Positions 7,814 through 56,732 of a stretch of 64,000 nucleotides of DNA are shown piece by piece. The notes under the pieces are model-generated. The model saw only the letters and a list, made by a program, of their open reading frames with translations. It had not been told where the DNA came from and made no database searches. A program made the position numbers and the translations under genes. Each line of letters opens with the position of its first letter. Positions within the stretch are counted from its first letter, which is position 1. The DNA is from Candidatus Omnitrophota bacterium (GTDB taxonomy: Bacteria > Omnitrophota > Gorgyraeia > Zapsychrales > Fredricksoniimonadaceae): positions 34,207 to 98,206 of the forward strand of contig CAILQW010000040.1 of the NCBI GenBank assembly GCA_903836515.1, in the 5' to 3' direction.

Positions 7814-7814
7814 A

Positions 7815-8738: not shown

Positions 8739-8811
8739 GTACGTTCCTGTCCCTGCGGGTTGATGAACCCGGACCTTTTGCCTTGACTACCCCTGCCGCG
8801 CCTGCCCCGTC

Positions 8812-10104: not shown

Positions 10105-10143
10105 ATGTTCTCCATCTGTTTGAGCGACTATAAAATATAATTA

Positions 10144-10166: not shown

Positions 10167-10217
10167 CACTGCCATTTTTATTTGTCAAAAAATACACGCC
10201 ATGTACAAGAATGTAAC

Positions 10218-39881: not shown

Positions 39882-40787
39882 TTAAGACCCACCTGCCATA
39901 TTTTTCAACGGATTATTGTACATAAAATCAAGGAAGATCGGCGCGCCGACCAAGATACCAACTACTGGAAAAATACAAAAAAGGAGCGGCATTAACATCT
40001 TTAGCGGCGCCTTAAGGGCCATGGCCTCACCCCTGCGATAACGCGCCATACGCATGTCTTCGGAAAGAATGTTCAGGGCCTCACTTACAGACGTCCCCAT
40101 TTTATCAGCCTGGATCAAGGTCCTGGAAAATGTCGAAAGGTCGGGGATCTCGTACTTTTTCGCCAGATCGCGCAGGGCATCACGCCGCGGCTTACCTACG
40201 TTGATCTCCTGCAGGACGTTATTCATTTCGCTCAAAAGAAACGACGGACTTGATTTTTCGACCACCCACTTGAGCGCCATCATGAAGTCGAGCCCCGCAT
40301 TTACGCAAAGGCCCAACAGGTCCACCGTATCGGGTAACTGTTTAACAATGCTTTCCTTCGCCTTCTTGATCTTGCCGCGCAGCCAGAATTCCGGCAGAAA
40401 ATACGCCCCCCCGATCGATACCAGAAACCCAAACATCAACAGATCCTTGTTCAAAAAAGTAAAAGCTGTGTAAAAAAGAAAAATAAACAGGATTTCTTTG
40501 ATCAGCAGGAATTCTTCGGGAGAAATGCCTGTATGCGATACCGATATATTTTTCAGCATGTTCCGGCGCATGTCCTGGTTAATCAAGGGCTTGTTTAAAA
40601 CCGACATTCCCCGCAAAAAGGAAGAAACCAGGGATTTGCGCTCTGTCTTTTTTTTGGTCTGCTCGGAAGAAACGACCCCAAAATCATGCATTTTCAATGT
40701 CGGCCTGGCATCAAGGACATCCATCTTGACACCCATCACCACAAGCATCCCGCAGGCCACAATAAAAATAAACGCGATCGTCAGCAT
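39882..40787 (-). CDS. tadC: Flp pilus assembly inner-membrane platform protein TadC (GspF/T2SF family).
   Basis: 301 aa and multi-TM with the T2SF-like architecture. It lies immediately downstream of its paralog tadB (10-nt gap). Confidence 0.75.
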   Translation of the reverse strand: MLTIAFIFIVACGMLVVMGVKMDVLDARPTLKMHDFGVVSSEQTKKKTERKSLVSSFLRGMSVLNKPLINQDMRRNMLKNISVSHTGISPEEFLLIKEILFIFLFYTAFTFLNKDLLMFGFLVSIGGAYFLPEFWLRGKIKKAKESIVKQLPDTVDLLGLCVNAGLDFMMALKWVVEKSSPSFLLSEMNNVLQEINVGKPRRDALRDLAKKYEIPDLSTFSRTLIQADKMGTSVSEALNILSEDMRMARYRRGEAMALKAPLKMLMPLLFCIFPVVGILVGAPIFLDFMYNNPLKNMAGGS

Positions 40788-40796: not shown

Positions 40797-41654
40797 CTAA
40801 TCATTGAACGAACTGATCTTGATGATCAAAAATGTGCCCAGCAGCCACAGCCCGATAGAAACCATCATGAGCATCCGGCCAAGCTCGGTGGTGATCATGA
40901 CCTGAAAATATTTGGGATTGGTGGCATTGACCATAACAAAGAATGCCACCGGAAGACCGCTCATGACCGCCGCCTGCAATTTTCCCTGCACCGTCAATAC
41001 CATCAGATTTTCCTCAATTTTGCGCCGCTCGCGAATGGTCCCGACGATCCTTGAAAAAATAAGGGGAAGATTGCCGCCCGTTTCACGCGAAAGAAGGATG
41101 GCGCTGACCATCTGCTGCATGGCCGCGGAAGCCATTCTCTTGTACAAACGGTTCAACGCCTCATCAAAAGAGACACCCATTTTATTTTCACCCAGCACGA
41201 TCCCGAATTCATGACGGATGGGATCGGGCATTTCTTCAACCACCGCTTCCATGGACTGCACCAGGCTCATGCCGCCCCGCAGGGAACTGGACATGATCAT
41301 GAGCGCGTCAACAAGCTGGACATCAAATTGCTGTTTACGTTTTTTAAGAAGGCTCCCGGCATAAAGCCTGGGCAGGATCAGCCCTACCACGAATCCGCCC
41401 AAAAGCCCCGCGAAACGAAATTGCGTATCAGAAAAAAACATAAAACCCAGCACGGCGCAAATGAACGGGGCGATAATATACAAACGCTGGACAGCCTGGA
41501 TGTCTTCGGCGATCATGGAGCGGTCCATTTCGCGCGCAAAGTCCCTGGCGCGCTTCTGGTTCATTTCATGAACGCCTCTGACCGTGACAGGGATCACAAA
41601 ATAAACGCACAAGACCGCACATACAAAGATCAGGATAAAAATGACAGGAAGCAT
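40797..41654 (-). CDS. tadB: Flp pilus assembly inner-membrane platform protein TadB (GspF/T2SF family).
   Basis: 285 aa. An N-terminal TM precedes a cytoplasmic helical domain (ALMIMSSSLRGGMSLVQSMEAVVEEMPDP...GENKMGVSFDEALNRLYKRM) and C-terminal TMs. Confidence 0.75.
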   Translation of the reverse strand: MLPVIFILIFVCAVLCVYFVIPVTVRGVHEMNQKRARDFAREMDRSMIAEDIQAVQRLYIIAPFICAVLGFMFFSDTQFRFAGLLGGFVVGLILPRLYAGSLLKKRKQQFDVQLVDALMIMSSSLRGGMSLVQSMEAVVEEMPDPIRHEFGIVLGENKMGVSFDEALNRLYKRMASAAMQQMVSAILLSRETGGNLPLIFSRIVGTIRERRKIEENLMVLTVQGKLQAAVMSGLPVAFFVMVNATNPKYFQVMITTELGRMLMMVSIGLWLLGTFLIIKISSFND

Positions 41655-41669: not shown

Positions 41670-42005
41670 TTATGGTTGGTTGCTGCAGGCTGCCTGACAG
41701 CCTGTCTTTACCCCGTCAACACACGCCCGATAGTCGGCCGCTCGCTTGCACGGCAGGACTGCGTTATTATAACAGGCCTGCGCGTACCACACATTCAATT
41801 GATCATCATACGCGCACTCAATGGTCGCATCGGGATTATACTGCCGTAAAAACCCGAAAGTCTCCGACACCTTGCGGTACTGCCCCTGCAATCCCCGCTG
41901 GATATAACTGCGAAAAGAAAAAACAACCGCCAATACAATAATGATCAGCACCACATACTCAAGCATGGCGAACGCTTTCTCTTGTTTCCAACAGGCCCCT
42001 GGCAT
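41670..42005 (-). CDS. Flp-type (class III signal peptide) pilin paralog with a Cys-rich C-terminal extension.
   Basis: Start taken at MMGAAMPGACWKQEKAFAMLEYVVLIIIVLAVVF. AFAMLEY fits the [GAS]-x4-E-[YF] Flp processing motif followed by a hydrophobic helix. The C-terminal half has 8 Cys (ECAYDD...QACYNNAVLPCKRAADYRACVDGVKTGCQAACSNQP). The longer ORF-track start at 42143 is rejected. Confidence 0.55.
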   Translation of the reverse strand: MPGACWKQEKAFAMLEYVVLIIIVLAVVFSFRSYIQRGLQGQYRKVSETFGFLRQYNPDATIECAYDDQLNVWYAQACYNNAVLPCKRAADYRACVDGVKTGCQAACSNQP

Positions 42006-42016
42006 AGCGGCTCCCA

Positions 42017-45000
42017 TCATTGGCTGCAGCATTCGGAACAACGACGAAATGTCATTTGCATCTTGTTGCCGGATATAAAATATCTGGCGCAGGTTTCCGA
42101 AACAACCCCCTTGCTCAACAAAGCCTCCGCCGCATTGTAACATTCGATCAACGGCCCTGGCATGGAAGACTCCAGGGGTAAATTGATCATGAAAGCTTCA
42201 TTCAGATTGTCCTGTGTCATGATGGCCGCGCTGGTATCTTCCAAACGGACATAACTGTTGGTCACATTCCCCGCGGCATCCCGTTCCGATTTACGGCTGT
42301 AATGGTTCTCGATGCAATTGCGGTAAATATCCGATACATTATAACCCACATCGGTATTCCTGTTGTGCGGATTACGGTAAAGAATTTGCCAGATAGGTAA
42401 TCCGCTTAACAACTTCAAAACCCCGCCCTGCGCTGGATCATGATCCTCGTCATATCGGATCACCCGGGTGCCCACACAACCATCCGCATCCGAAATCTCA
42501 TAACAACGCGTCATGCTCAAAATGCCTTCCGTATACGTTCTGATCCACGGGAATGTATTGGTACAGGTATTAAAACCCGCCCCTCCGTGTTTGGGGATAG
42601 CCGCTTCCACCTTGACCAGATGCAAATAACCCTTTCGCGTCGCCGCATTCGATGTGTTCCACGCGCCTGGCCGCGGGGAAAGCCAGCCATAAATGACCTG
42701 GTTGCCCAAATGAGGCGCCGCCGCGATCACGGCATCAATGGAATTGACCAGCCCGATGATCTGTTGGCCTTTACCCGCAATATCATCATGCGCTTTCTGC
42801 AACACAGGCAGAAAATCTTTCATGTGCTGGAGAAGATCTCTCAAATAAGCCGCACGGGCCTTCATTTTGATGCTTTGATTGACCGCCAACGTGGCACTGT
42901 TGGAAATTTTCTTGATGTAATCCGCTGAACACGTGCCCGCGGCAACGTTACGGCCCAAATCATTATTAGGATCAAATCCAGGAACAAGCGACCGGGGAAG
43001 ATCCTTGCACGCGGCCGCGGCAACACAGGCCGTTGGGTTGGCGCTCAAAGCGCCCGCACACGCCGCAAAAGCCTGATTCAAATTGCTGTTGTAATCCAGA
43101 CAACGCAGGACGCTGTCCACAGACCCCCAGGGCGATGGGGTCGCCAGGATATAATTCTTTTCTTTCGCGGTCATGGTGGTCAAGTCCGTCGGTAAACACC
43201 ACGCATTGGCATCTGTATACGGCCCCTTCAACCACGTGTTGATCTCATCGATCCAGCGCTGCATGCGCGCTTCCATCTTGCCCAGCTCCATCCCCTGGGC
43301 AATGACCGCAGCTTTCCAGGCCGCCACAGAATACGCCAATTGCGCCTGTGTGGCCGGATTTGTCGTCAATAACGGCGTTACCGTCTGCAAGAAATACGCC
43401 ATGCCGGTTGACATGGCATCAAAACCATCGTCATACCAGAGATCCTTGTGATCCACATTGGGACACATGCAATTGGCCGCAATAGCAGCCGGAGCACCCG
43501 CCGCATTGCAAACGCCAACGGGCTGGGATGAAGACCCCTGCTCCATTTTCACCGGATAAACAATATTGCTTGAGGGGTCCTGGAACGTATCCGAATAACG
43601 GTCAGCGCCCTTTTTCCATAACAGTTTCGTTCCTGCCTCTACCGCCGGATCCCGTGCACAGTCGCTATCTGCCACAGGCCTGAATGATTCAATGTCCGGG
43701 ACCACATCCAGTTTAAAATTGGAATAACTTAACGAACTGCTCACATTGTTATTGAAGGTATTCACACAACAATCTTCACCCACACAGGTTGGCAATGACA
43801 GCTGATCATATGCCGTCGTCCCCGCAGGACGGAAAAGGAGGCGTGTCGGGGTGGGCGGCGGTGAAAAAGGCGGCGTTGTCAGCGAACAGGGCGTGACGCG
43901 CTTGTCACACCAGTGACAACCCGGCGCTTCGGCACGCATGTCTGCGGCATTGATATCCTTTAACATCGGCGCCGTATCCGCCAACAGCCACAAGAACGGG
44001 AATATCTTGCCCGTGCTGTCCGCGCCGCGGAATATCGGCATCCAGGGATCCGGTATTTCCGCACCGGCAGAAAAATATTTTTTCTTGTTGGCATCATCCA
44101 TGCCCATCACGCTCAGGAAAGACGTGCTGACGTTCTTTTGAACATAAAGTGGATCATACGCATAACAAGCGGTCAACTGGTTCGCAGAAGGCGCACAGCC
44201 GGGAGCGCTCAAGCACTCCTGAGGTACCAACTCCGGCTTTTTAGGATCCAGGGAACAGGCCGCAGGCCGCATCGTCGGATCCGTACAACACGGATTGCAT
44301 TGCGGCCTTAACTGCGGACCAGTGCCCAGGTCAACATAACATACCGCCGGATTGCCGCCAGAAAGCCCCAGCGCATCCACAACGCCCTGTAACGTCTGGC
44401 GCAAGGTATCGATCGCCGTGGTGGGCGGTAACGGTATCCCCCGCATCCGGTCTGTGTAATAAAAGGCGAACCGCGAAACCTTGGCGGCAGGATCCCCCTT
44501 CTGAGGGTACTCCCGGATATACCAATGCGTGTTCCCATCAAGATCCCAACGGTCTGTCACCAGCACCGGATCCCCTGTTGCCAGATTCAAGGCGGTGCTG
44601 ATCCCGTTCTCCAGATACTTATCTTCAATGGTGGGCAGGTTCTTCTGCCATTTATTCCACATCTTTGTCAGGCCCGGCTGAACCACGGTTACCTGCAACA
44701 CAATGGCGGCAACGGCCAGTCCAATGGAAATAGCCGCCACCGTCCCTGCAGAAAGCCCCATGGCACTACCAGCGACCTCCCCAGCCCCAGGAATCACACA
44801 CGTAAGAACAACAATCGCCACCAAGGCAATGATGGCCGCCAAAACACCCGTAAACCCGCATTTTTTAGCTTCTCCACCCAACTGTGTCTGGATCAGATTC
44901 TCGCCATAACCAGCCATGAGCGAAACAAGCGCTGCCGCAGCACTGTTGGAGGCAATGGTCACCGTTGTCTTCGTTGACGCGATCCTGGACCAGTTGATGG

Positions 45001-45079
45001 TCACGGCGTACAAAACAAAGGCGACAGCAACCATCAGGATCACAACAAGGGACATTTGTCCTTTACGGGACAGTGGCAT
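42017..45079 (-). CDS. TadG-like pilus-associated protein, 1020 aa, with a very large Cys-rich extracellular domain (candidate tip adhesin).
   Basis: N-terminus GQMSLVVILMVAVAFVLYAV...SNSAAAALVSLMAGYG resembles the TadE/TadG N-terminal (Tad) domain. Additional TM/Gly-Ala helices follow, then ~800 aa with >40 Cys (e.g. CNPCCTDPTMRPAACSLDPKKPELVPQECLSAPGCAPSANQLTACYAYDP) ending in RRCSECCSQ. It is embedded in the tad operon. Confidence 0.55.
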   Translation of the reverse strand: MPLSRKGQMSLVVILMVAVAFVLYAVTINWSRIASTKTTVTIASNSAAAALVSLMAGYGENLIQTQLGGEAKKCGFTGVLAAIIALVAIVVLTCVIPGAGEVAGSAMGLSAGTVAAISIGLAVAAIVLQVTVVQPGLTKMWNKWQKNLPTIEDKYLENGISTALNLATGDPVLVTDRWDLDGNTHWYIREYPQKGDPAAKVSRFAFYYTDRMRGIPLPPTTAIDTLRQTLQGVVDALGLSGGNPAVCYVDLGTGPQLRPQCNPCCTDPTMRPAACSLDPKKPELVPQECLSAPGCAPSANQLTACYAYDPLYVQKNVSTSFLSVMGMDDANKKKYFSAGAEIPDPWMPIFRGADSTGKIFPFLWLLADTAPMLKDINAADMRAEAPGCHWCDKRVTPCSLTTPPFSPPPTPTRLLFRPAGTTAYDQLSLPTCVGEDCCVNTFNNNVSSSLSYSNFKLDVVPDIESFRPVADSDCARDPAVEAGTKLLWKKGADRYSDTFQDPSSNIVYPVKMEQGSSSQPVGVCNAAGAPAAIAANCMCPNVDHKDLWYDDGFDAMSTGMAYFLQTVTPLLTTNPATQAQLAYSVAAWKAAVIAQGMELGKMEARMQRWIDEINTWLKGPYTDANAWCLPTDLTTMTAKEKNYILATPSPWGSVDSVLRCLDYNSNLNQAFAACAGALSANPTACVAAAACKDLPRSLVPGFDPNNDLGRNVAAGTCSADYIKKISNSATLAVNQSIKMKARAAYLRDLLQHMKDFLPVLQKAHDDIAGKGQQIIGLVNSIDAVIAAAPHLGNQVIYGWLSPRPGAWNTSNAATRKGYLHLVKVEAAIPKHGGAGFNTCTNTFPWIRTYTEGILSMTRCYEISDADGCVGTRVIRYDEDHDPAQGGVLKLLSGLPIWQILYRNPHNRNTDVGYNVSDIYRNCIENHYSRKSERDAAGNVTNSYVRLEDTSAAIMTQDNLNEAFMINLPLESSMPGPLIECYNAAEALLSKGVVSETCARYFISGNKMQMTFRRCSECCSQ

Positions 45080-45093: not shown

Positions 45094-45342
45094 TTATTTC
45101 TTATATAGCAATGTATCCATTGTCCGAACCTCGTGAAAATTCGGATTCACCTGCTGTTCTGTGGTCAAATTCTTGTTGCTCAAGATCGCATCATGATCAT
45201 ACCGCCGTTCCGCCATATCCATCATGCCCCAGCGAAAAACCTCGATCATGCCATAAACGATCAACGACAGGGCGATCATGCCTGCCGTAAATTCGAGGAT
45301 GCTCTGGGCTTTGTTTCTTTTATTAAAAAACACCATGCTCAT
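45094..45342 (-). CDS. TadE-like minor pseudopilin (82 aa).
   Basis: KRNKAQSILEFTAGMIALSLIVYGMIEVFRW matches the TadE-like N-terminal hydrophobic domain. Its start overlaps the upstream gene stop by 4 nt. Confidence 0.6.
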   Translation of the reverse strand: MSMVFFNKRNKAQSILEFTAGMIALSLIVYGMIEVFRWGMMDMAERRYDHDAILSNKNLTTEQQVNPNFHEVRTMDTLLYKK

Positions 45343-47129
45343 TTTGCCCCCAGGCTCTGCTGCCAGTCCTCATCGGTGGCCGTTACCCATTTGCGCCCGC
45401 GTTTGTCACTGATACGGCTTCGAATAAAAAGGGTCTTGGCATCCTTGTCAAAACATGTCTGCGCCGACCCCATGCAACAGCCGCCACCAATACCAATATA
45501 GGAATACCCCGTGGGCGTTGTCGCGGCGCCACCGCTGCATGACGTCTCGATGCTTTTATTCCTCGCCAGCAACGCGTCAGGATCGATCATGTTCACATTC
45601 AACTGCAAAATGCGCTCCACAACGTCATACTGGCTTTTTTTGACCGTGCTGATATTAAGCGGGGTCCCGTCCGATGAGTATTCCTTGCCCTCTCTCACAT
45701 CAAAATAAGTATACCCCCCGTCATTGGTCCGCGTATAGATCCGCATATCGGCGCGCATCCCCGGGCGCCGGTTAGGATCCACAAAATCCTCCGCACCCTT
45801 GGTCGTATCATAATCAGCAACAGCCGTATCCATGACGGACACAATGTAACCCTTGTACGCCCCGCACACCGTTGTCTTTCGGGGTGGCGTTTGCGCCGGA
45901 AAATTAGCTTCAATGAGAAGCCTGTTCAATTGCTGCAATTCCAGAACACTTAACACTTCTCCCGCCTTCAAACGATCAATGAACGCCGTGGTTGTGGCAG
46001 GCTGAACGGACATGGCTTGATACACGTTCGGGTCCACCAACAAACTGTTCAAGCGGTCGATCTCCGTTGCCCCGGCGGGAACCGTAATACCGCTGGCCTC
46101 AATAGCATCTATCAAGGCGGCCGGGGTCAGGGGCGCTGCAAATTCACTGATAGAAAAGATATACGGTGATTCCAGCTTTTCCAGATCATAAACCGTCTCT
46201 TCGGATAAATCACCATTGGTATCGTATGTTGGAAAATTCCCGTTATCCTTGTCGATCTTGCCGACCACCGTATCGATCGAATCCCACCGCCATTGCCACA
46301 TCGCATAATCATAATTGGGAAGGTCATCATCATAAAAGCCATTGCGCGTGTAATCAAACCGCCGCTGCGTATCCGCCGTCAGGCTGTAATCCGTATCATT
46401 GCTGACGATCGCCTGATAAAACGGCGGGTACCCGCCCTCGGGGTGATTGGTCCATTCATACACAAGCCGCTGACGCTGAACCTTGTTCTCAGCGCTGTTC
46501 AAATTGATAACACACGGGTCACCGGGACAGCTCTGCCGCCATCCGATCTTCCAGTTGATGTTCGGGTCCGTGGATGAGGAATTCAGGATCGGTGCCGGAC
46601 ATGCGCCCCCCTCAGGTTTATACATCATAATGACAACATCATCCGGGTTGGCATCTTCCAAACGCGCAGGAACGGCCGCCCCTTCTCTAAGAAGGATCTT
46701 GTAATGGACAAACGCGCTCGTGGTGAATTCAAACTCCTGCCCGTTCACCTTGACATCCATCATGGGCAGATCCTGGGGCTCGTTCCAGTCCACAGGCATG
46801 AAGACATTTTTGCTCAGCATGCCCGCCCCGGAAGCCGTGACCGGCTGGCGATCCTGGGATCCATAGCGACCGAAATCTCCATTCAAACGATCTTCGTAAT
46901 ATAAATATGAGGCACTGACCCGTGAATGTGTCCCGGCCTGAGACGACTGATAGGATTTCAGCATGGCGATGCGCATGGCCTGGAGCCGCGAGTTTTGCTG
47001 GAGAGAACCGGAAACGGCATTGAGAGCCATCCCCCCGATCAGGAAAAAAAGCACAGCGCCAAAAACCGCCAATTCAATGATGGATTGCGCGTTCTTTGAC
47101 GCCTTGACAGGGTCCTGATCGTTTTTCAT
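45339..47129 (-). CDS. Large (596 aa) TadE-like pseudopilin with an extended extracellular domain.
   Basis: The N-terminus KASKNAQSIIELAVFGAVLFFLIGGMALNAV is a TadE-type prepilin-like segment. It is followed by ~540 aa of W/Y/D/N-rich secreted-type sequence with 6+ Cys. Confidence 0.55.
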   Translation of the reverse strand: MKNDQDPVKASKNAQSIIELAVFGAVLFFLIGGMALNAVSGSLQQNSRLQAMRIAMLKSYQSSQAGTHSRVSASYLYYEDRLNGDFGRYGSQDRQPVTASGAGMLSKNVFMPVDWNEPQDLPMMDVKVNGQEFEFTTSAFVHYKILLREGAAVPARLEDANPDDVVIMMYKPEGGACPAPILNSSSTDPNINWKIGWRQSCPGDPCVINLNSAENKVQRQRLVYEWTNHPEGGYPPFYQAIVSNDTDYSLTADTQRRFDYTRNGFYDDDLPNYDYAMWQWRWDSIDTVVGKIDKDNGNFPTYDTNGDLSEETVYDLEKLESPYIFSISEFAAPLTPAALIDAIEASGITVPAGATEIDRLNSLLVDPNVYQAMSVQPATTTAFIDRLKAGEVLSVLELQQLNRLLIEANFPAQTPPRKTTVCGAYKGYIVSVMDTAVADYDTTKGAEDFVDPNRRPGMRADMRIYTRTNDGGYTYFDVREGKEYSSDGTPLNISTVKKSQYDVVERILQLNVNMIDPDALLARNKSIETSCSGGAATTPTGYSYIGIGGGCCMGSAQTCFDKDAKTLFIRSRISDKRGRKWVTATDEDWQQSLGAK

Positions 47130-47131
47130 GC

Positions 47132-47455
47132 CTACAGACCTGCGGGTTCCATTAATGTTGAACTTGTTTTTGCTTCAACAGAACTTGATGTGTCTTTCCT
47201 ATATGTAAAAGAACCATTGGAGCCGTTGACAATCCCCGGAACAACATAAAGTCGAGATTCGGATGTTGTGTCCGTCATATAATGTGTATTGCCATGAAAA
47301 CCCTGGGCATCATATTGCTCCCCGAGATCATCGACAGATTGTTTCCAGCGCCCCTGAAAACCACGCTTAATATAAACCTGCATGGTTAAAAAGGCGGCAA
47401 TAATGATCATGAGCAGGATCGAATACTCTAATAGACTTTGAGATTTCTTCATCAT
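47132..47455 (-). CDS. Flp-type pilin paralog.
   Basis: Start MMKKSQSLLEYSILLMIIIAAFLTMQVYIKRG. It has the [GAS]-x4-EY motif plus a hydrophobic helix and a Gly/Ser/Thr-rich tail. The ORF-track start at 47596 is rejected because it has no RBS and overlaps the upstream pilin gene. Confidence 0.7.
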   Translation of the reverse strand: MMKKSQSLLEYSILLMIIIAAFLTMQVYIKRGFQGRWKQSVDDLGEQYDAQGFHGNTHYMTDTTSESRLYVVPGIVNGSNGSFTYRKDTSSSVEAKTSSTLMEPAGL

Positions 47456-47456
47456 A

Positions 47457-47786
47457 TCAATCCTTGGTGAAACCCATATTGGTCTGCGAATTTGTGGACG
47501 TTTCCGTCCGCTCAAGAACCGCTGACGTGATCGTTCCGCCGTTATCGCCGCGCGTATTATCCACAGCGCCATGCGTTGACGTATTCGAAAATTCAAGATA
47601 GCCGCTGGTCCCGCTTGTCAGGTCCTGTTCAGCGTTCTTCTGATCGCCGATCTGATCTGCCGCCACCTTGATCATGCTCTGGGTTGTCCGCTTGACCCGC
47701 GGGAACATGTAAACAACCGCAGCCACCACCATGGATACCAGCAGGGCATATTCCATCAACGATTGCGCGCGGCGAGAAAAAAACAT
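47457..47786 (-). CDS. Flp-type pilin paralog.
   Basis: MFFSRRAQSLMEYALLVSMVVAAVVYMF... Confidence 0.7.
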   Translation of the reverse strand: MFFSRRAQSLMEYALLVSMVVAAVVYMFPRVKRTTQSMIKVAADQIGDQKNAEQDLTSGTSGYLEFSNTSTHGAVDNTRGDNGGTITSAVLERTETSTNSQTNMGFTKD

Positions 47787-47795
47787 GGCTCACCT

Positions 47796-48143
47796 CTACA
47801 TGGCATCCTTGGGCGCCAATTGTTCGCTGTTCGCATTAACACGGCGATCCGTGTTGATATCTTTTTGACGGCCAGCCGTTACTGTTTTTTCTTCTTCTTT
47901 AACACCGGCTTGTACGGCTGTAACAGAATTCACATAATATGGCTCATACTCAATCTGGACCGCATTACCGGATGCCCCTGCCGCCCGCATCACCATCAGC
48001 ATGTCAGCATCCCGGATACGCCCTTGAATAGTCCGGCGCACATACGTCGTCATGGTGATGATCGCGGCAATCACCACAAAAATCATAAGCACATATTCAG
48101 CGCTGATGCCCTGGGCTTTGGCAGTGCGGGAAATCTTCACCAT
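47796..48143 (-). CDS. Flp-type pilin paralog.
   Basis: MVKISRTAKAQGISAEYVLMIFVVIAAIITMTTYVRRTIQGR... Confidence 0.7.
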   Translation of the reverse strand: MVKISRTAKAQGISAEYVLMIFVVIAAIITMTTYVRRTIQGRIRDADMLMVMRAAGASGNAVQIEYEPYYVNSVTAVQAGVKEEEKTVTAGRQKDINTDRRVNANSEQLAPKDAM

Positions 48144-48213
48144 AAACTTCCCTTATTGAAAAATAAAACCAGGAAGGGCGCATGAAGACCCTTCCTGGTT
48201 CATCATTGACCCA

Positions 48214-48528
48214 TTAATTCCCCCAATACTCCCCATACGCATTCGTTCCGATCCTGCGGTATGAATTCGTGATCGTATCTGCCATCAAGTTGGTGCTGGC
48301 AACCCCCTGGACATTGTTGTCCCTGATCGAGGAATTCGTCGTCACAACTTTATAAAAATTGGCAGCCTTCGCATCCGAATACTGATCACCGATATCATCC
48401 GTCGCACTTTGTAAACGGCCCTGTATACCACGTTTGATATAAGTCTGCAAGGTCAGCAGCGCGGCGATGATAATGACCATCAAAATCGCATATTCCAGCA
48501 CGCTCTGACCGCTTTTTGTTTTTAACAT
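48214..48528 (-). CDS. Flp-type pilin paralog.
   Basis: Start MLKTKSGQSVLEYAILMVIIIAALLTLQTYIKRGIQGR. The ORF-track start at 48666 is rejected. Confidence 0.7.
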   Translation of the reverse strand: MLKTKSGQSVLEYAILMVIIIAALLTLQTYIKRGIQGRLQSATDDIGDQYSDAKAANFYKVVTTNSSIRDNNVQGVASTNLMADTITNSYRRIGTNAYGEYWGN

Positions 48529-48547
48529 AATAAATACCTTCCTTTCA

Positions 48548-48925
48548 TTAGTAACCACTGGCGGCTTCACCACTGAGCGCGCTATTGGATGCACTAACAG
48601 TATTCTTGTTGTAATTTGTCGTATCGACATAGCCCGCGGCCCTCTTGGTGCTGATGGTCGTATCAAGCTGTTGGTCTATGGTCTGCTCTTTCTTTGAGCC
48701 TTTGTCTGTCTGTGCGCTTGTATTGGTATAATACGGCTCATACTGCAGGGTATTGCCGATCTCCGTGGTGCTGTCACGGAACATCACGCTCGCATCACGC
48801 AAGCGGCCCTGCAACGTGCGCTGAGCATACGTCTGCATGGCGATAACACCGCCAACAACCAACGCGATCAAAATCGCATATTCGGCGGTATTTTGAGCCT
48901 TTTTGTTTTTAAATAATTTTAACAT
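48548..48925 (-). CDS. Flp-type pilin paralog.
   Basis: Start MLKLFKNKKAQNTAEYAILIALVVGGVIAMQTYAQRTLQGR. Confidence 0.7.
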   Translation of the reverse strand: MLKLFKNKKAQNTAEYAILIALVVGGVIAMQTYAQRTLQGRLRDASVMFRDSTTEIGNTLQYEPYYTNTSAQTDKGSKKEQTIDQQLDTTISTKRAAGYVDTTNYNKNTVSASNSALSGEAASGY

Positions 48926-49006
48926 TCTGTCCTCCTCCAATTAAAACTTTTAAGATCATCGTAAACACGATAAAATGCCTTTTAACTTCAGAACGACCGC
49001 ACACTC

Positions 49007-49195
49007 TTAATGCGAATTTGACAAACGATCCGAGAATTTAGCCATTGTATCAACACCGTCTCCCAGTGTCGCATTCAATGTCTTGCGAAACGGCGAATCC
49101 GGTTTTACAACAAGACCAATAATAATGACGATAACCGCGGTGACCAAAAGCACATATTCCAGCGTGCTTTGACCCTTTCGATGACATCTTGACAT
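49007..49195 (-). CDS. Flp-type pilin paralog (62 aa).
   Basis: MSRCHRKGQSTLEYVLLVTAVIVIIIGLVV... GAGGAGG RBS lies 5-6 nt upstream. Confidence 0.7.
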   Translation of the reverse strand: MSRCHRKGQSTLEYVLLVTAVIVIIIGLVVKPDSPFRKTLNATLGDGVDTMAKFSDRLSNSH

Positions 49196-49220
49196 AGTAT
49201 CCTCCTCATTATAAGAACGC

Positions 49221-49379
49221 TTATTCTGCCTTGAATTCCTCGGTCATTTCTTTTTGCTTCGACTGGACAGCACGATACACATAAGTACTCATCGCAACAG
49301 CTGCTGCCGAGATGATGGCAACGACAAGGGCGTATTCCACCACGTTTTGACCTTTGTTACGAAACTTCAATAACCCCAT
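49221..49379 (-). CDS. Flp-type pilin (52 aa); below the ORF-track length cut-off.
   Basis: The reverse-strand translation reads MGLLKFRNKGQNVVEYALVVAIISAAAVAMSTYVYRAVQSKQKEMTEEFKAE. AAGGA lies 7 nt upstream of the ATG (complement of 49377-49379). It is first in the pilin array and nearest the upstream promoter region, so it is a candidate major pilin. Confidence 0.65.
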   Translation of the reverse strand: MGLLKFRNKGQNVVEYALVVAIISAAAVAMSTYVYRAVQSKQKEMTEEFKAE

Positions 49380-49683: not shown

Positions 49684-51525
49684 CTAAAGGGATGCTTTTT
49701 CAATTGAAAAATGCCATCTTTTGTTGTGGTGCTCTTCAAATATATTGCTATTTATTCTATTAATTAGGGTTTCGACCTGTTGTGTATAAGAAAACCCTTC
49801 AGGAAGGATCAACCGGATGAGAGCAAGACCTTGCCGTTGCTGAAAATAACCGGAAAGACAATAGAGCGACTGTAAAATGCCGTGATCTTCTATATCTAAA
49901 AATTTATATTTAATATATTCTTCAAAAATATGTACTAATTTTTGTAATGTAAACTTTTTAGTTCCATCCTCTTCATTATGAATTGATTTATTCAGTGTTT
50001 CTTGAATGTATTTTTTTGTTTTATTATCATTATCTTCTATTTTAAAATTTAATAACTTTGCTAAATTATCATTTATTATGCTAGTTACTGTGTGATTTTC
50101 ACTCTCTATATTTGTCAAAAAAATAATTTTCTTTTCTTTTCCCTGTAGAGAAACAACAACAGCGCGTAAAACATCAGCCTCTCCATCCATCGGCGTGAAA
50201 CGATAGGAGCCCCCTAAAATGTTATATTTCTTATCTAATATTGAATTGTATATGGATTGAGGATTTTTTATCACTTCAAATTCTATGTTTTCAAGCGAAA
50301 ATTGCTCCTCATCAAAACCTGCTATAAAACAAATCTTCCGCCCCGCCTTGATATCAGATTCCCATATTAAATTATTGTTTTTCCCCCACAAAGAAATTTT
50401 TTCCGGGTTTTCAGCTCCAGAACCATTTAAAACAGAGATCATTTTTCTGACGGCGGGAACAAGACCTTGCGGGCAATTGAAAACAAGCGGTTTTATGGGG
50501 AAAACCACACGATCAACCGCGTCATCTATAGCCTTAATCATCGGGAAAGAGGATCCCGTTGGTGCTGTCTCAAATATCTGGGTAAGATCATCACTCAAAA
50601 AATAATTATGGCCGCCATTGGTCTTAATACAAAAATATCCATTCTTAAGAAAAACGAGCTCTAGCTCTGCTTCAATCGCTGCCCTGAAAACTATAGATGT
50701 AAAATCTTTCTCTAAAAATTGTTCTAGCGACGCCTGGCCTTTCTTACGATCAAGATCAAGCAAGGTCCACACAACATCAGAACTTACGGCATGGGCATCA
50801 ACCATCCCGCCTCGGCCCAACGCTGTGAACAAAATAACAGCTTCCAGCATTCTAGCGTTCGCTACCGTCTGACGACCATCCTGAGACAAAAAGGTCGAAA
50901 CCATCGGCCGCCGTAAACTATCTGACAAAACCGCTTCAAGAAACGCGATTCCCATATTTTCAAATATTGGCCCTTTTTCACCCGACCAGAAAAATTCATC
51001 TTTTAACGGGACAAAATCTATAGGGCGTTCCTGGGTGAACTGGCCTATTGACAAGCTGTTCCTCAACCGATCTGGTCCAAGTTTTAATAGTTCGGGGATA
51101 TCTTCAAAAAAATCATCGGATTCATCAGGATTTAACATATCGGCTTGCGTTATAACCTGATGGCCTTCTGTTTGCACTTCTGCCGGCAACTCAATTCCCT
51201 TCCCATTTTCAGAAAGATCCCCCTCAGTGGTACTACAGGGCACTGGCTGAACAATGTTAGCATCCGGAAGAAACGGAATAACTTGGGCTAATAATTGATC
51301 TTTTTTATCTTTGGGAATATAAAAATTCTGGGAAGGTTTGCGACCGACTGGACTGCTAAGCTTATACTCTTTGATAACCGCATTAATCGAAGATTTTGAA
51401 ACTTCTATGTGAAATACTTCTTTTAATAGTGCTGCAATTTTACGACAGCTTAACGATGGGTCATTTTTTTTCTTTTCTACAATGACTTGAACAACTTCTT
51501 TTTTTAATTTGTATATCACGCCCAT
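49684..51525 (-). CDS. 613-aa protein with an N-terminal HTH, encoded by a compositionally distinct (low-GC) segment; unknown function, possibly a horizontally acquired regulator or mobile-element protein.
   Basis: N-terminus LSCRKIAALLKEVFHIEVSKSSINAVIKEY is HTH-like. The 3' half (forward coordinates ~49700-50400) is strongly AT-rich and Lys/Asn/Ile-rich, unlike all flanking genes. It interrupts the tad locus between the tadZA-DUF192 genes and the flp array. Confidence 0.5.
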   Translation of the reverse strand: MGVIYKLKKEVVQVIVEKKKNDPSLSCRKIAALLKEVFHIEVSKSSINAVIKEYKLSSPVGRKPSQNFYIPKDKKDQLLAQVIPFLPDANIVQPVPCSTTEGDLSENGKGIELPAEVQTEGHQVITQADMLNPDESDDFFEDIPELLKLGPDRLRNSLSIGQFTQERPIDFVPLKDEFFWSGEKGPIFENMGIAFLEAVLSDSLRRPMVSTFLSQDGRQTVANARMLEAVILFTALGRGGMVDAHAVSSDVVWTLLDLDRKKGQASLEQFLEKDFTSIVFRAAIEAELELVFLKNGYFCIKTNGGHNYFLSDDLTQIFETAPTGSSFPMIKAIDDAVDRVVFPIKPLVFNCPQGLVPAVRKMISVLNGSGAENPEKISLWGKNNNLIWESDIKAGRKICFIAGFDEEQFSLENIEFEVIKNPQSIYNSILDKKYNILGGSYRFTPMDGEADVLRAVVVSLQGKEKKIIFLTNIESENHTVTSIINDNLAKLLNFKIEDNDNKTKKYIQETLNKSIHNEEDGTKKFTLQKLVHIFEEYIKYKFLDIEDHGILQSLYCLSGYFQQRQGLALIRLILPEGFSYTQQVETLINRINSNIFEEHHNKRWHFSIEKASL

Positions 51526-51622: not shown

Positions 51623-51967
51623 TTAAGAAACAATCTGCATTTGATCGCCCAACGATGTTTTAGTCCGCTCAATGGTGCCGGTGGGAAGCTCTAAGACCTT
51701 GTCTGCTTTCCAAAAAATAGGGCTGAGTTGATTGGGCTTAATATGCCTCACCAACCCAACAACGTGACTATTGCGGTCAAGGAATACAGCATCAATCGCA
51801 AATTTCATAAAAAACATATGGATTGAATTGCAGTGCGTAATAATGAGACATTGTCCGTCCTTAAATGATGGTACTCCCAAAAGACCACGTGCACGCGTGA
51901 AAAAAGTATCCGCAAGCCATGCCTCCAGAGAAAGGACATTGTTATTCGTAAGATTTTTTATGATCAC
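51623..51967 (-). CDS. DUF192 (COG1430) family protein.
   Basis: 114 aa. Conserved-looking blocks ARGLLGVPSFKDGQCLIITHCNSIHMFFMKFAIDAVFLD are typical of DUF192. It overlaps the upstream tadZ-tadA stop (coupled). Confidence 0.5.
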   Translation of the reverse strand: MIIKNLTNNNVLSLEAWLADTFFTRARGLLGVPSFKDGQCLIITHCNSIHMFFMKFAIDAVFLDRNSHVVGLVRHIKPNQLSPIFWKADKVLELPTGTIERTKTSLGDQMQIVS

Positions 51968-54141
51968 TGGGCAGGAACACTCTTGTGCGGCAGGAACATT
52001 TCTTCTTTAAGCTCAACCCCGCGCTTGACAATATCTTCAAAACATTGGGGGATATAACCGGTTGGTCGGAATTCACCTAAAACACGTCCAGATTTATCAA
52101 GTCCCTGATGTTCGAAAACAAAAATATCTTTAAGTTCAGGTAAACCATCCACAAGATTTCCGGTTACTTCCGTTATGGCCGTAATTTTGCGTGTCCCATC
52201 GGAAAAACGCGAAACCTGAACGACAATATCGATCGAAGAAGCAACCATTTCATAGACCGCACGCAACGGAAGTTCTATCCCGCTTAAAAGCATCATGGAA
52301 TTCAAGCGCGTGATGGCGTCACGCGTTGAATTGGCGTGCAACGTGGTCAATGAACCATCATGGCCCGTGTTCATGGCCTGTAACATATCCAAAACCTCGG
52401 CACCACGACACTCACCGATAATGATGCGGTCAGGACGCATACGCAGGGTGTTCATGAAAAGATCCCTGATCAGTATCCCTCCTTTGCCCTCGACGTTAGG
52501 CGGGCGGGACTCAAGCCTGGCCCAATGGGACTTGTTAAGCTTTAACTCAGCCGCATCCTCAATAGAAATGATACGTTCTCCGTCGGGGATATACTCGGAA
52601 ATAATGTTAAGGAGTGTCGTCTTGCCGGAACCTGTCCCTCCGGAAACGATCATGTTCTTGCGCACAACGACTGCGGCCCGGATGAATTCAGCCATGGCCG
52701 GCGCCAAACTCTTGAATCGCCGCAAAAGATCGTCCATCCCATAACGGTCCTGGCCAAACTTCCTGATGGTGATCATGGGTCCGCGCAAAGAAAGCGGAGG
52801 GATGATCGCATTAATACGCGACCCGTCAGGAAGACGCGCATCCACCATGGGCACAGATTCATCGATACGCCGGCCCAGCGGCGCAATGATGCGGTCAATC
52901 ACAGAACGTACCTGCTGATTTGACACAAACCGTTTATTGGTATGAATAATCTTGCCGCTCTTTTCAACGTAAATTTCATCCTTGTTATTGACCATGATAT
53001 CTGTCACGTCCGGGTCAGCCAGCAATTCCTCAAGGGGCCCGAGGCCAAGGGCCTCGTTCACAATATCTGTAACAAGTTTCGCACGCTCCTGATGCGAAGA
53101 AACAAGGGCCCCGGACTCTTCTGCCAACAAATTAACAATGATCCGTTCCGCCTGTTTCTTGATCTGCGCCGACTGCTCAGGATCTGACAAGGCTTCGGGG
53201 GTGATGGCCTGAAGGTTCATCCGCTCAATCAGTTTTTCATGGACCCTCTTTTTAAGAAGGATGGCCTCATCTTCATCTTTTTTGACTGTATACTTGGCCT
53301 GGACCGCGGCCATTTTTTCATTAATGCCGAACTTTTCCCAGAAATTATCAGCCGTGGCTTCCTCGGTGGCACGGACCCGGATGACTTCCGTGGTATTGAC
53401 ATAAATACTTTCGTTCTCAAGATCCTTGGTCAGCTGCATGAACGCCAGGGAAACCTTGGCTTTGGGATTATCCACAACAACCGGAATACCCCTGTTAAGG
53501 GCCATCCCGACGACTTTACCGTCAGAGGGCACACGTGAAATGATGTCGCATGTCAGGGCGTCTTTCACTTCCTGCCAGGCGACACCCCCGTGACTTTCAG
53601 CGCGATTAAGCACAAGCTTGATCATCTTCAACGGAAAGTGTTCGCTTTGGAGAATTTCCATGCCCCACTTGATCTGATACACCGAAAGGATGTCCGGTGT
53701 GGCAACCAGAAGAATAAGGTTGGAGATATCCAGGATCGACATCAGCGTTTCTGTAAATGTCTTTCCCACGTCGACAATAATATAATCGTAATGCGGGGAA
53801 ACTCTTTTGAAGAAAAGCTTCACGTTATCCGGCGTAATATGGCCCATCTGGCGGATATTGGTGACAGCCGTGATAAAATCAAGGCCCGACGAATGGGTGA
53901 TCATGAATTTCCTGACATCAACAGCCTCTGTTGATTTTTCCATCTCAGGAAGGACTTCAACAATAGATTGATCCGGCGCCAGATTCAGCATCCGCGCCAT
54001 ATCCTGTCCGGACTGAAAATCAAGATCAACAACCAGTGTTCTTTTGCCCGATAAAGACAACGCAACGGCTGTATTGACACAAACAAATGTTTTGCCAACA
54101 CCGCCTTTATTGCTGAAAACCGTGATTATTCTTGCTGACAT
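51964..54141 (-). CDS. tadA: Fused TadZ(CpaE)-like MinD/ParA ATPase domain + TadA/CpaF secretion ATPase (725 aa).
   Basis: The first ~260 aa, ARIITVFSNKGGVGKTFVCVNTAVALSLSGKRTLVVDLDFQSG...DYIIVDVGKTF, form a deviant-Walker-A ParA/MinD fold as in CpaE/TadZ. The C-terminal ~450 aa carry the CpaF/TadA VirB11-like core (IVSGGTGSGKTTLLN...ISIEDAAEL...RMRPDRIIIGECRGAEVLDMLQAMNTGHDGSLTTLHANS). Confidence 0.8.
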   Translation of the reverse strand: MSARIITVFSNKGGVGKTFVCVNTAVALSLSGKRTLVVDLDFQSGQDMARMLNLAPDQSIVEVLPEMEKSTEAVDVRKFMITHSSGLDFITAVTNIRQMGHITPDNVKLFFKRVSPHYDYIIVDVGKTFTETLMSILDISNLILLVATPDILSVYQIKWGMEILQSEHFPLKMIKLVLNRAESHGGVAWQEVKDALTCDIISRVPSDGKVVGMALNRGIPVVVDNPKAKVSLAFMQLTKDLENESIYVNTTEVIRVRATEEATADNFWEKFGINEKMAAVQAKYTVKKDEDEAILLKKRVHEKLIERMNLQAITPEALSDPEQSAQIKKQAERIIVNLLAEESGALVSSHQERAKLVTDIVNEALGLGPLEELLADPDVTDIMVNNKDEIYVEKSGKIIHTNKRFVSNQQVRSVIDRIIAPLGRRIDESVPMVDARLPDGSRINAIIPPLSLRGPMITIRKFGQDRYGMDDLLRRFKSLAPAMAEFIRAAVVVRKNMIVSGGTGSGKTTLLNIISEYIPDGERIISIEDAAELKLNKSHWARLESRPPNVEGKGGILIRDLFMNTLRMRPDRIIIGECRGAEVLDMLQAMNTGHDGSLTTLHANSTRDAITRLNSMMLLSGIELPLRAVYEMVASSIDIVVQVSRFSDGTRKITAITEVTGNLVDGLPELKDIFVFEHQGLDKSGRVLGEFRPTGYIPQCFEDIVKRGVELKEEMFLPHKSVPAQ

Positions 54142-54150: not shown

Positions 54151-55884
54151 TCAATTATGTGTTGCGACATTCTTAAGGAATGAATCCAAACTGTACACAA
54201 TAGAAACAACGATCTGCGTCTTATCTGACTGAGCAGACTGGGGCGGCGCTGAATAAGGCGCAAGGATTTGTGCGGTATTGACCGCATCCTGATCAAACAC
54301 CTTATACCCTGAAGATTCCTTGACCTTTACATCCTTAAGCGTGCCTTCTTTATCAAGGGTCAGGGCAAGTTTGACCGTTCCCTGCCAATTCTTTTCCTGA
54401 GCTTCGTACGGATACGCGATGGCAGACGCAATTTTGTTCTGGATCGTTAACGCATAATTTTCAAGCGCGGTCGCACCGGCCACAACCGGCGGCTTGACGG
54501 CCTCAATGGGCTTTGACGCAACGCCAGTTGCGGATGCAGGCGCCACCACAGCAGCCTTGACCGGAAGCCTGGCTTCAATTTTTTGTTCGGGCAGCTTGGT
54601 CTCTGAAGTTATATCCGCACTTTTCCCTGAACGTAAAATCGTGGGTGTAATGGAAATTACAACTTCTGTTTCCTCATTGGCCACCGGTGTCTTGGTGCTT
54701 CGAAAAAGCATCCCGACCACCGGGATACGGCTCATGAACGGAACACGCCGGACCAATTCATTGTCCCGGCGCTTGATCATCCCGGCCAAAACAATCGTTT
54801 GCTTATCTTCCAGCAAAAGCTGGGTATTAGCAGAACGTGTCAAGAACGCCACATCCGTTCCTGTGGGTTTAGAGGTATCAATTTCACTGATCTCGGCATG
54901 CAAAAGGATATTGACCAAATGGCCCGCCTGAATGGACGGCGTGATCGCCATGCTGACGCCATACTCTTTAAATTCCACGTTTTGCTGGGTCGAACCGCCG
55001 CTGGCACTGGTTGTTGTGGTCTTGATGGGGATTTCACCGCCCACCAGGAATGTGGCCTCTTTGCCGCTGATGACAACAAGGCGCGGCTTGGAAAGGACTT
55101 TCGCCTTCCCTTCCTGGATCATGGCATTGATCGCCGCAATCAGGGCATTCGTGCGGCTAAAATCACCAACTTTCCAGAGGTCCTTGAAAGAACCGTTGCC
55201 CTTGGGAATAGATATTGACGATGGCAGGTTTTCCTGATAATTGGCGGTCAAATCGCTGGTCGCAGTCCCCGTCCCCCAATCCACACCCATAGCTTTTGTG
55301 AGTGTTGTTGAAAGTTCGGTGATCTGCATGTCAATCTGGATCAAATCCTCGATCTTTTCTTTTTGAACAAGATTAATAACACGGTCGGAAAAAGGCTCTA
55401 TCACTTTAGTCAGCACATCCATCTTCTCTTCGGTCAGACTGCCTGTGATAACAACCTTGCCTTCATCCGCATTTTCATTGAGCGTCACCCCGAGCACGCC
55501 CGCCCCTGTCAGCAAGCTTTGGACTCTTTTTTTGACAAGCCCGGTGTCCTCCTGAACAACACGGATGACAACCGTGCGCTTACCGCCGTCATCCCAGATA
55601 AACAGGATTGTTTGTCCTGCCTCAATGCCGATCACGTCGACGGCGTCGGCACGGGCATCATTGATATCCGCCACCACAGGATCGGTGATGGAAACACGTT
55701 TCAAATTTTTGGCAGGAATGCTTTGAATGTCTCCCTTTAAAACCTGAATCTCTTCATAGGCGCGCGTCGAAGGAACAACGGGCGCCGCCCAAAGAGCGGC
55801 CGGCGTCCCGCCCAAAAGAAAAGCGGCAACACCCAGCAGCATCAACGGGGTTTTCATGATTTTAAACAAAAAAAACGTGCCCAT
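54151..55884 (-). CDS. cpaC: CpaC/RcpA-type secretin with an appended C-terminal TonB_C-like domain.
   Basis: Signal peptide MKTPLMLLGVAAFLLGGTPAALWA. N-terminal pilus-formation (BON-like) domain. The secretin core is VVISGKEATFLVGGEIPI...VLAGMIKRRDNELVRRVPFMSRIPVVGMLFRSTKTPVANEETEVVISITPTILR. The last ~100 aa (AIAYPYEAQEKNWQGTVKLALTLDKEGTLKDVKVKESSGYKVFDQDAVNTAQILAPYSAPP) match the TonB C-terminal domain pattern (YP..A...eGtV.l.f.i...G.v.dv.v..SSG...lD.aA). Its start overlaps the cpaB stop by 1 nt. Confidence 0.8.
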   Translation of the reverse strand: MGTFFLFKIMKTPLMLLGVAAFLLGGTPAALWAAPVVPSTRAYEEIQVLKGDIQSIPAKNLKRVSITDPVVADINDARADAVDVIGIEAGQTILFIWDDGGKRTVVIRVVQEDTGLVKKRVQSLLTGAGVLGVTLNENADEGKVVITGSLTEEKMDVLTKVIEPFSDRVINLVQKEKIEDLIQIDMQITELSTTLTKAMGVDWGTGTATSDLTANYQENLPSSISIPKGNGSFKDLWKVGDFSRTNALIAAINAMIQEGKAKVLSKPRLVVISGKEATFLVGGEIPIKTTTTSASGGSTQQNVEFKEYGVSMAITPSIQAGHLVNILLHAEISEIDTSKPTGTDVAFLTRSANTQLLLEDKQTIVLAGMIKRRDNELVRRVPFMSRIPVVGMLFRSTKTPVANEETEVVISITPTILRSGKSADITSETKLPEQKIEARLPVKAAVVAPASATGVASKPIEAVKPPVVAGATALENYALTIQNKIASAIAYPYEAQEKNWQGTVKLALTLDKEGTLKDVKVKESSGYKVFDQDAVNTAQILAPYSAPPQSAQSDKTQIVVSIVYSLDSFLKNVATHN

Positions 55885-56732
55885 TAATTGGCCCCCCTTC
55901 CACTTTTATAAATCTGAATCGCGGGTCCCGACGGGGAAGGTTCGGCTTCAGAATCCTTCTTGGAGCTGTCTGACACATTAAGATCAGCACCCGTATTTTG
56001 TAAAACATATTCCGCCAGGGTTGACCAGGTGGCGGCGGAAATCATGGCCGGCTTCTTCTCATTGGGCGAGCGCAGGGCCAGTTCAATTTTTCCGTTCTTT
56101 TCCGCGAATGACAAAAGACTTGCCTCTTCCGGCGTCACCGCAAAGGTGATCTTCAGGGAACGATCCTTTTGCTGTTCATCATACACACCGGGCTGATCAA
56201 TGTTTGTATTAATAGCGAGGATCTGAAGATTCTGAAAAATCATCGCGGTAACCGCTTCTTTTTTCTCTTTTTCCTTACCGGCAAAAGCCTCTGTCTTTGG
56301 CATGCTCAACTGGGCAATAACATCCACATAATCGCCAGGGTTAAGAAGACCGCCAACAGCCCCCAACGACTCGATCATGACGGTGATCGCACGCTTCCCG
56401 GCCGGCATCCGCAATGCCAGGGACACAGCCTTGCGTTCCTTCTTGGCATCCTGCCCAAGACGGGCCTGCTCTGTAGCGGCCTTGGCCGCATCCTGGGCCG
56501 CCTGCTGTGCGCGCTGCTCGACCTGGGAGATCTTTTGATTCAGCGCGCCCAGATCCTGTTTATACATCTCGTCCCGTTGTTTTTGCTCTTTCTGGAACTT
56601 GCGGGCGATCTTGTCCGTCTGCTCATTGATCGAACTTTGCACAAAATTACTGACCAAAAAAGCGGCAACAAGACCCGTACCTACGGCTGCAATCAGTACA
56701 AAGAATTGTTTCTTATTTTCCATCAATGCCAT
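55884..56732 (-). CDS. cpaB: Flp pilus assembly protein CpaB/RcpC.
   Basis: 282 aa. N-terminal TM (FFVLIAAVGTGLVAAFLVSNFV), a coiled-coil linker and a SAF/CpaB-type beta domain (RAITVMIESLGAVGGLLNPGDYVDVIAQL). Confidence 0.75.
   Translation of the reverse strand: MALMENKKQFFVLIAAVGTGLVAAFLVSNFVQSSINEQTDKIARKFQKEQKQRDEMYKQDLGALNQKISQVEQRAQQAAQDAAKAATEQARLGQDAKKERKAVSLALRMPAGKRAITVMIESLGAVGGLLNPGDYVDVIAQLSMPKTEAFAGKEKEKKEAVTAMIFQNLQILAINTNIDQPGVYDEQQKDRSLKITFAVTPEEASLLSFAEKNGKIELALRSPNEKKPAMISAATWSTLAEYVLQNTGADLNVSDSSKKDSEAEPSPSGPAIQIYKSGRGAN

Follow-up and report, generated by a model that had tools for sequence, protein, structure and literature searches.

A TadZ-TadA fusion lacking the receiver domain as the probable motor ATPase of an Omnitrophota Tad pilus

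In a stretch of 64,000 nucleotides from a Candidatus Omnitrophota bacterium (the window; contig CAILQW010000040.1, positions 34,207 to 98,206), we find a gene, here called tadZA, that is very probably a natural fusion of TadZ and TadA, encoding the ATPase that serves as motor for a Tad (Flp) pilus in Omnitrophota. An earlier reading made from the sequence only had proposed that TadZ(CpaE) and TadA(CpaF) are joined at this place into one polypeptide of 725 amino acids (aa), and this part of it stands, as positions 51964..54141 form one uninterrupted open reading frame (ORF) of that length from ATG to TGA. The strand, which had been left unstated, is the minus strand, and the plus-strand translation of the same interval was rejected because of its many stops. 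The ATG is preceded at about 5 nt by a Shine-Dalgarno-like GAAGG and follows the end of the secretin gene after 9 nt. The product carries two intact ATPase modules in a single conserved frame, linked by a disordered stretch of about 33 residues. Canonical TadZ begins with an atypical receiver domain (ARD) of about 130 aa, which this protein lacks. The parts of the gene are as follows.

51964..54141, minus strand: tadZA, ARD-less TadZ/CpaE domain, linker and TadA/CpaF (ORF, Pfam, NCBIfam, AlphaFold2, Foldseek)
53392..54133, minus strand: TadZ/CpaE-like ParA/MinD ATPase domain, aa 3-250 (Pfam, NCBIfam, PDB 3EA0, Foldseek, motifs)
53272..53370, minus strand: flexible linker, aa 258-290 (predicted local distance difference test, pLDDT, below 50 in AlphaFold2; most variable stretch among orthologues)
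51994..53268, minus strand: TadA/CpaF motor, aa 292-716, consisting of a helical bundle, an N-terminal domain and a RecA-like C-terminal domain (T2SSE, TIGR03819, 8RJF, motifs)

Both modules named in the sequence-only reading were recovered by domain search. The N-terminal module is matched by the Pfam families AAA_31, CbiA and ParA at aa 4-250 (E 7e-17 to 7e-14) and by NCBIfam models at aa 3-251, and it contains the deviant Walker A motif KGGVGKT at residues 12-18, switch I at 37-41 (VVDLD, with D39 and D41) and Walker B at 121-124 (IIVD, with D124). The remainder is a full CpaF core, as had been claimed, with T2SSE at aa 365-642 (E 2e-58, 198 bits against a cut-off of 24.9) and all four boxes of the secretion ATPases, which are invariant in 100 orthologues: Walker A at 501-509 (GGTGSGKTT), the Asp box at 528-533, Walker B at 569-577 (RPDRIIIGE) and the His box at 592-602. 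The TadA-family model TIGR03819 matches aa 329-657 with 320.9 bits and does not reach the cut-off of 373 that delimits a conjugal-transfer-associated subfamily, which places the protein in the TadA family and outside that subfamily. With the first Walker A motif already at residue 12 there is no space for an ARD, so that the absence of a receiver-like domain from the TadZ portion, also part of the sequence-only reading, is borne out.

We modelled the protein with AlphaFold2, using an alignment of 100 orthologues, and compared the parts of the model with the PDB using Foldseek. The mean pLDDT is 75.9; residues 1-257 form a confident alpha/beta domain, the linker at 258-290 is predicted to be disordered (pLDDT 28-36), and a helical bundle at 292-365 is followed by the two CpaF domains up to residue 716. 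The C-terminal part (about 430 residues) has the TadA/CpaF structures 8RJF, 8RKD and 9E24 as its top matches, with 44% identity to 8RJF and a template modelling (TM) score of 0.80, and FlaI, VirB11 and PilU rank below them. The N-terminal part (about 245 residues) fits best on 3EA0, a ParA-family ATPase from Chlorobium tepidum (TM 0.89, root-mean-square deviation 2.4 A), with FlhG, FleN and MinD ranking after it (TM 0.72-0.85). By sequence as well, 3EA0 is the top PDB match (E 8e-16). In the alignment the Walker A of 3EA0 is KGGDGGS, and we take this protein to be a TadZ homologue and the motif to be of the TadZ type. Both the sequence matches and the AlphaFold2/Foldseek comparison assign a ParA/MinD fold to the N-terminal domain, rather than the N-terminal extension of a CpaF-family protein, which the sequence-only reading had named as one of the outcomes that would overturn it.

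At least 17 contigs, obtained from independent samples and assemblies (among them ERZ1426688, ERZ27313058, SRR5754711 and ERZ1426625), encode the identical 725-aa product, and the neighbours of tadZA are unchanged on all of them. A search of 5.8 billion proteins returned more than 110 clusters of 714-739 aa, 64-81% identical to the query, that match the two-domain Pfam signature, and those clusters that carry a name are labelled Candidatus Omnitrophota or Omnitrophica. KGGVGKT occurs within the first 60 residues in 114 of the 120 best homologues. In the 100-sequence alignment the mean column identity is 73%, and no variation is seen in the catalytic residues of either half (K12, G13-G16, K17, T18, D39 and D124 in the first; G506, K507, T508, E528, E577, H594 and H602 in the second). 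Conservation is lowest at aa 271-285; the linker region holds the invariant or near-invariant residues R257, F267, W268 and K270-G272, and the junction is not rich in gaps.

These data bear on how far the fusion could be apparent rather than real. The genes cpaE and cpaF are adjacent in most other phyla, often in the same frame and 3-45 nt apart, so that a single base error in sequencing or assembly, merging the two through a lost stop or a collapsed frameshift, could mimic a fusion, and resequencing had been suggested to exclude this. The independent identical contigs and the same-length orthologues serve that end in effect. The recurrence of one product across samples, the common length of 114 orthologues, the conserved residues of the linker and the lack of the ARD that a merged canonical cpaE would have brought along all speak against an artefact, which is refuted in practice and to which we assign a negligible probability. 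The gene might instead give two products, the full-length fusion and a free TadA from an internal start in the linker, in which case the fusion would be only partly relevant. In-frame ATG codons do exist near the domain boundary (M276 and M308), but neither is preceded by a recognisable Shine-Dalgarno sequence, M276 falls inside the least conserved block of 15 aa, and in Bdellovibrio a full-length TadZA-msfGFP accumulates (bioRxiv 10.64898/2026.07.08.737194); we consider this alternative improbable.

A further question is whether the N-terminal module is TadZ/CpaE at all, or another ATPase of the ParA/MinD family (MinD, FlhG/FleN or ParA) that was recruited to TadA independently. The best named NCBIfam matches for aa 3-251 are indeed MinD models with 82-93 bits, many orthologues are annotated by JGI as 'septum site-determining protein MinD', and the Walker A is of the canonical MinD type, KGGxGKT, including a P-loop lysine that is absent from many TadZ proteins. 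However, the MinD models score far under their cut-offs (TIGR01968 81.6 against 212.9 bits, TIGR01969 93.1 against 201.75), KGGxGKT is also found in CpaE of Firmicutes and Actinobacteria, and the closest solved relative, 3EA0, carries KGGDGGS. About 45 loci, spread over Firmicutes, Actinomycetota, Chloroflexota, Acidobacteriota, Proteobacteria and other phyla, have a gene of about 390-460 aa located 3-140 nt upstream of cpaF, the cpaE of a tad locus, and the domain aligns with the ATPase half of this gene. These CpaE ATPase domains reach up to 162 bits and 36.6% identity in tblastn (Firmicutes, L004), whereas the solved MinD and FleN proteins remain at or below 56 bits in phmmer. The domain also occupies exactly the tadZ position of tad loci, right after rcpA and upstream of and in frame with the tadA part; it has no C-terminal membrane-targeting helix, no minC or minE is found nearby, and the 64-kb window contains no min genes. 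The scores well above those of MinD and FleN, together with the locus position, place the module in the TadZ/CpaE lineage, and this assignment is supported by the sequence comparisons even though the ARD of the canonical family is missing. Recruitment of a different ATPase is therefore unlikely in our view.

To place the TadZ-TadA fusion among its relatives, we surveyed 80 species-representative genome loci in which query residues 3-716 were matched, and checked their ORFs. Most of these candidates turned out to be neighbouring split cpaE and cpaF genes bridged by tblastn, and 12 are true single-ORF fusions: 3 of the Omnitrophota type, 6 from Bdellovibrionota/Oligoflexia, 1 from an Elusimicrobiales metagenome-assembled genome (MAG) and 2 from other MAGs. 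The six include Bdellovibrio sp. HCB288 and a locus titled 'Deltaproteobacteria bacterium' (L005), grouped with them by its position in the N-domain tree. One locus counted as Omnitrophota-type (L002, CAYZPQ010000129.1) is titled 'uncultured Planctomycetales'; its tadZA is 62% identical to the query, and the contig is probably mis-binned or taxonomically mislabelled. In a representative library of 1.84 billion proteins, at least 57 of the 150 best clusters at 50% identity are full-length fusions, 37-54% identical to the query. Of 10 metagenomic fused clusters looked up, 2 bear an organism label, one 'Atribacterota' and the other just 'bacterium'. The survey of relatives that the sequence-only reading had proposed has thus found the same fusion in the more than 110 orthologue clusters, in 12 genome loci and in these clusters of the representative library. 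The rarity implied by that reading does not hold: the TadZ-TadA fusion is the usual form in Omnitrophota, an already published feature of Bdellovibrio and a common find in metagenomes.

The fused and the split forms differ in their N-termini. None of the 70 fused proteins examined has a receiver domain, and in all of them the P-loop begins between residues 6 and 35; in the complete split CpaE proteins (about 45) it lies at residue 132 or later, mostly at 132-212, behind an N-terminal extension that is kept and measures at least about 130 residues. Fusion and loss of the ARD coincide without exception in this sample. Matches of 820-1600 aa were considered as candidates for ARD-TadZ-TadA fusions and were rejected, as Pfam finds no ParA domain in them and shows TadA-TadA(-TadA) tandems; two or three T2SSE domains are linked in each of these tandem proteins (P0031, P0121, P0123, P0124, P0125, P0127 and P0136).

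Whether the fusion arose once or several times is addressed by the following comparisons. The window protein is collinear with the Bdellovibrio sp. HCB288 fusion over 684 aa, with 39% identity (E 2e-166). In a neighbour-joining tree of the N-terminal domain, the Omnitrophota clade and the Bdellovibrionota clade each have 100% bootstrap support, the union of the two has 35%, and the grouping of all fusions together has 20%; in the corresponding tree of the CpaF domain the bootstrap values of the deep nodes are near 0. In the split loci (L004-L080) the gap between cpaE and cpaF is mostly 3-45 nt with 1-3 intervening stops, and the two genes are often in the same frame, a bias that is probably inflated because tblastn joins same-frame matches and ranks them higher. 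Given such short same-frame gaps, the loss of one stop codon could create the fusion, and could do so repeatedly.

The tad locus is complete, and tadZA takes up its tadZ-tadA position. On the minus strand the genes run in the order gyrB, gyrA, mdh, a PpiC-type peptidyl-prolyl isomerase (PPIase), rcpC, the secretin, tadZA and DUF192, followed by a 613-aa ORF, about 7 Flp pilins, 3 pilin-like proteins, a 157-aa ORF, tadB, tadC, a 748-aa protein and a 7270-aa ORF. The members of the locus other than tadZA are listed below.

55884..56732, minus strand: rcpC/cpaB (Pfam RcpC E 2e-24; TIGR03177 98.6 bits, cut-off 71)
54151..55884, minus strand: rcpA/cpaC, secretin with C-terminal TonB_C (Secretin E 7e-42; TonB_C E 3e-17, aa 489-566)
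51623..51967, minus strand: DUF192 (COG1430) gene, whose GTG start overlaps the TGA stop of tadZA by 4 nt (GTGA)
49684-51525, minus strand: 613-aa ORF, no significant family match, weak N-terminal helix-turn-helix match
47132..49379, minus strand: about 7 Flp-type pilin genes in tandem, 52-154 aa as ORFs (N-terminal Flp-like motifs; weak Flp_Fap match)
45094-47129, 42017-45079 and 41670-42143, minus strand: three pilin-like proteins with hydrophobic N-termini (596, 82 and 1020 aa) and the 157-aa ORF (weak Flp1-like match)
40797..41654, minus strand: tadB, T2SSF platform protein (T2SSF E 9e-16)
39882..40787, minus strand: tadC, T2SSF platform protein (T2SSF E 2e-14)
15182-36994, minus strand: giant ORF of 7270 aa just downstream of the tad locus

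The overlap of start and stop suggests that DUF192 is translationally coupled to tadZA. The order PPIase-rcpC-secretin(TonB_C)-tadZA-DUF192 recurs in a second Omnitrophota genome (L001), and rcpC-secretin(TonB_C)-tadZA in a third (L003); DUF192 directly follows tadZA in the former (12174-12524) and is found farther downstream in the latter. The TonB_C-bearing secretin is likewise present in both (8146-9969 in L001, 696-2366 in L003) and is a second fused component of the same Tad machine. The 613-aa ORF keeps its position on all contigs with an identical tadZA and is a candidate for a locus-specific partner or regulator. With about 7 Flp paralogues, three pilin-like proteins, which have no Pfam match, and the 157-aa ORF upstream of tadB, which has a weak Flp1-like match, the pilin repertoire is unusually large for a single tad locus. 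The 64-kb window contains no second ParA-like or CpaF-like gene and no separate tadZ, and no prepilin peptidase (TadV/CpaA) was found among the scanned window ORFs of at least 150 aa, with smaller ORFs scanned incompletely. Giant ORFs adjoining pilus or secretion genes have been described in Omnitrophota (PMC10066038; bioRxiv 10.64898/2026.06.07.730766). Glycoside hydrolases of families GH2 and GH94 are likewise encoded in the window, together with a sugar ABC transporter (4617-12944).

By analogy to known systems, the CpaF part of the TadZ-TadA fusion would form a hexameric motor under the TadB/TadC platform and drive the polymerisation of Flp pilins, possibly also their retraction. Each protomer would bring one TadZ module, giving a fixed 1:1 stoichiometry and six modules at the periphery of the motor. 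Both Walker A lysines are intact, as are switch I and Walker B. It is probable that the TadZ modules pair through the signature lysine into ATP-dependent sandwich dimers, as MinD and ParA do, and such dimers could couple the assembly or activity of the motor to a positional or regulatory partner in trans. The function of the lost ARD may either have been handed to a partner or be dispensable. On a larger scale, the ARD-less fusion might be more than a peculiarity of Bdellovibrio and constitute a Tad subtype of wide distribution and possibly great age, with members in Omnitrophota, Bdellovibrionota, dozens of metagenomic lineages and MAGs labelled Elusimicrobiales or Atribacterota, in which loss of the ARD goes strictly with covalent attachment to the motor; we put this forward tentatively, as a possibility that we do not favour at present.

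Several points weigh against our main reading of the gene and the mechanism proposed for it. The ATP-dependent dimerisation, the hexamer geometry and any partner of the Omnitrophota protein are drawn by analogy, and the scan of window ORFs found neither a receiver-domain nor a RomR-like protein. The TadZ modules of the window protein and of Bdellovibrionota are 23-29% identical, less than the identity of the former to split Firmicutes CpaE, so that a transfer of function from the Bdellovibrio TadZA is not secure. Both Walker A lysines are always kept in the Omnitrophota lineage of the window and in 30 of the 70 fused proteins overall, and the other 40, from elsewhere, lack one or both, which indicates that ATP turnover by the TadZ module is not universally required. 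The AlphaFold2 model has a predicted template modelling score of 0.55 and gives no measure of contact between the domains.

The gain over what is known is incremental, as the architecture has already been published, and the most useful by-products are the coupling of fusion to ARD loss, the breadth of the fusion in metagenomes and the argument for direct contact between TadZ and TadA. A conserved natural fusion argues for direct physical contact of the two at 1:1 stoichiometry and, with the TadZ module tethered, for a receiver domain that can be dispensed with. If this 'Rosetta-stone' reading is true, the TadZ/CpaE module would act directly on the TadA hexamer, and it could be the unassigned outer cytoplasmic ring seen by cryo-electron tomography in Caulobacter, with the ARD otherwise acting as the tether; in that study the position of TadZ/CpaE could not be assigned (PMC12637624). 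The naturally tethered 1:1 complex of Omnitrophota would make a convenient sample for determining the structure of the TadZ-TadA interface. Tad loci of Omnitrophota have been proposed to mediate attachment to hosts or prey (PMC10066038), and the TadZA fusion is an added feature common to Omnitrophota and Bdellovibrio-like predators. For annotation, pipelines mislabel tadZA as 'MinD' or as plain 'CpaF'.

Among known systems, the ATPases MinD, FlhG and FleN share with the N-terminal domain the ParA/MinD fold and the deviant Walker A with the signature lysine for ATP-dependent dimerisation, but they carry an amphipathic membrane-targeting helix at the C-terminus and work with MinC/MinE or flagellar partners, whereas the domain of the window protein runs on into a linker and a secretion ATPase. 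In the archaeal ArlH(FlaH)-ArlI(FlaI) pair, too, an accessory nucleotide-binding protein sits on a CpaF-like hexameric motor. FlaH, however, has a KaiC/RecA-like fold rather than that of ParA/MinD and is a separate polypeptide, so the likeness is functional only. The analogy to this archaellum pair has been drawn for CpaE (PMC12637624). The split TadZ/CpaE and TadA/CpaF of Aggregatibacter actinomycetemcomitans, Caulobacter and the roughly 45 loci mentioned above have both modules in the same order, at the corresponding place of the locus and among the same neighbours (rcpC, rcpA, tadB, tadC and flp); they differ in being two genes and, in Proteobacteria and Acidobacteria, in the P-loop lysine, which is usually replaced (KGGxG[TA]T).

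The closest counterpart is TadZA of Bdellovibrio bacteriovorus, in which an ARD-less TadZ is joined to TadA by a flexible linker (bioRxiv 10.64898/2026.07.08.737194), a fusion noted across predatory Bdellovibrionota (the same preprint; PMC13147790). There, TadZ plus the linker is both required and enough for binding the polarity hub RomR, a receiver-domain protein, TadZA moves dynamically from pole to pole, and TadV is reported to be absent from the tad loci (bioRxiv 10.64898/2026.07.08.737194). The window protein resembles it in the single chain of ARD-less ParA/MinD-like TadZ, flexible linker and TadA, in both Walker A lysines being intact (KGGVGKS in Bdellovibrio), in the position of the gene after rcpC-rcpA (the HCB288 locus reads rcpC-rcpA-tadZA-tadB) and in that no tadV prepilin peptidase is seen near either locus. 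The two differ in the secretin, which carries BON in HCB288 and TonB_C in Omnitrophota, and in the gene that follows, tadB directly after tadZA in the former and the apparently coupled DUF192 in the latter. Tad loci of Omnitrophota have been described, with an affinity of their TadB/TadC to those of Bdellovibrionales, in a paper that does not mention the fusion (PMC10066038), and as far as the searchable literature shows, the fusion has not been pointed out as the standard Omnitrophota form. The TadZA architecture itself is already known from Bdellovibrio, and the Omnitrophota gene is a new example of it.

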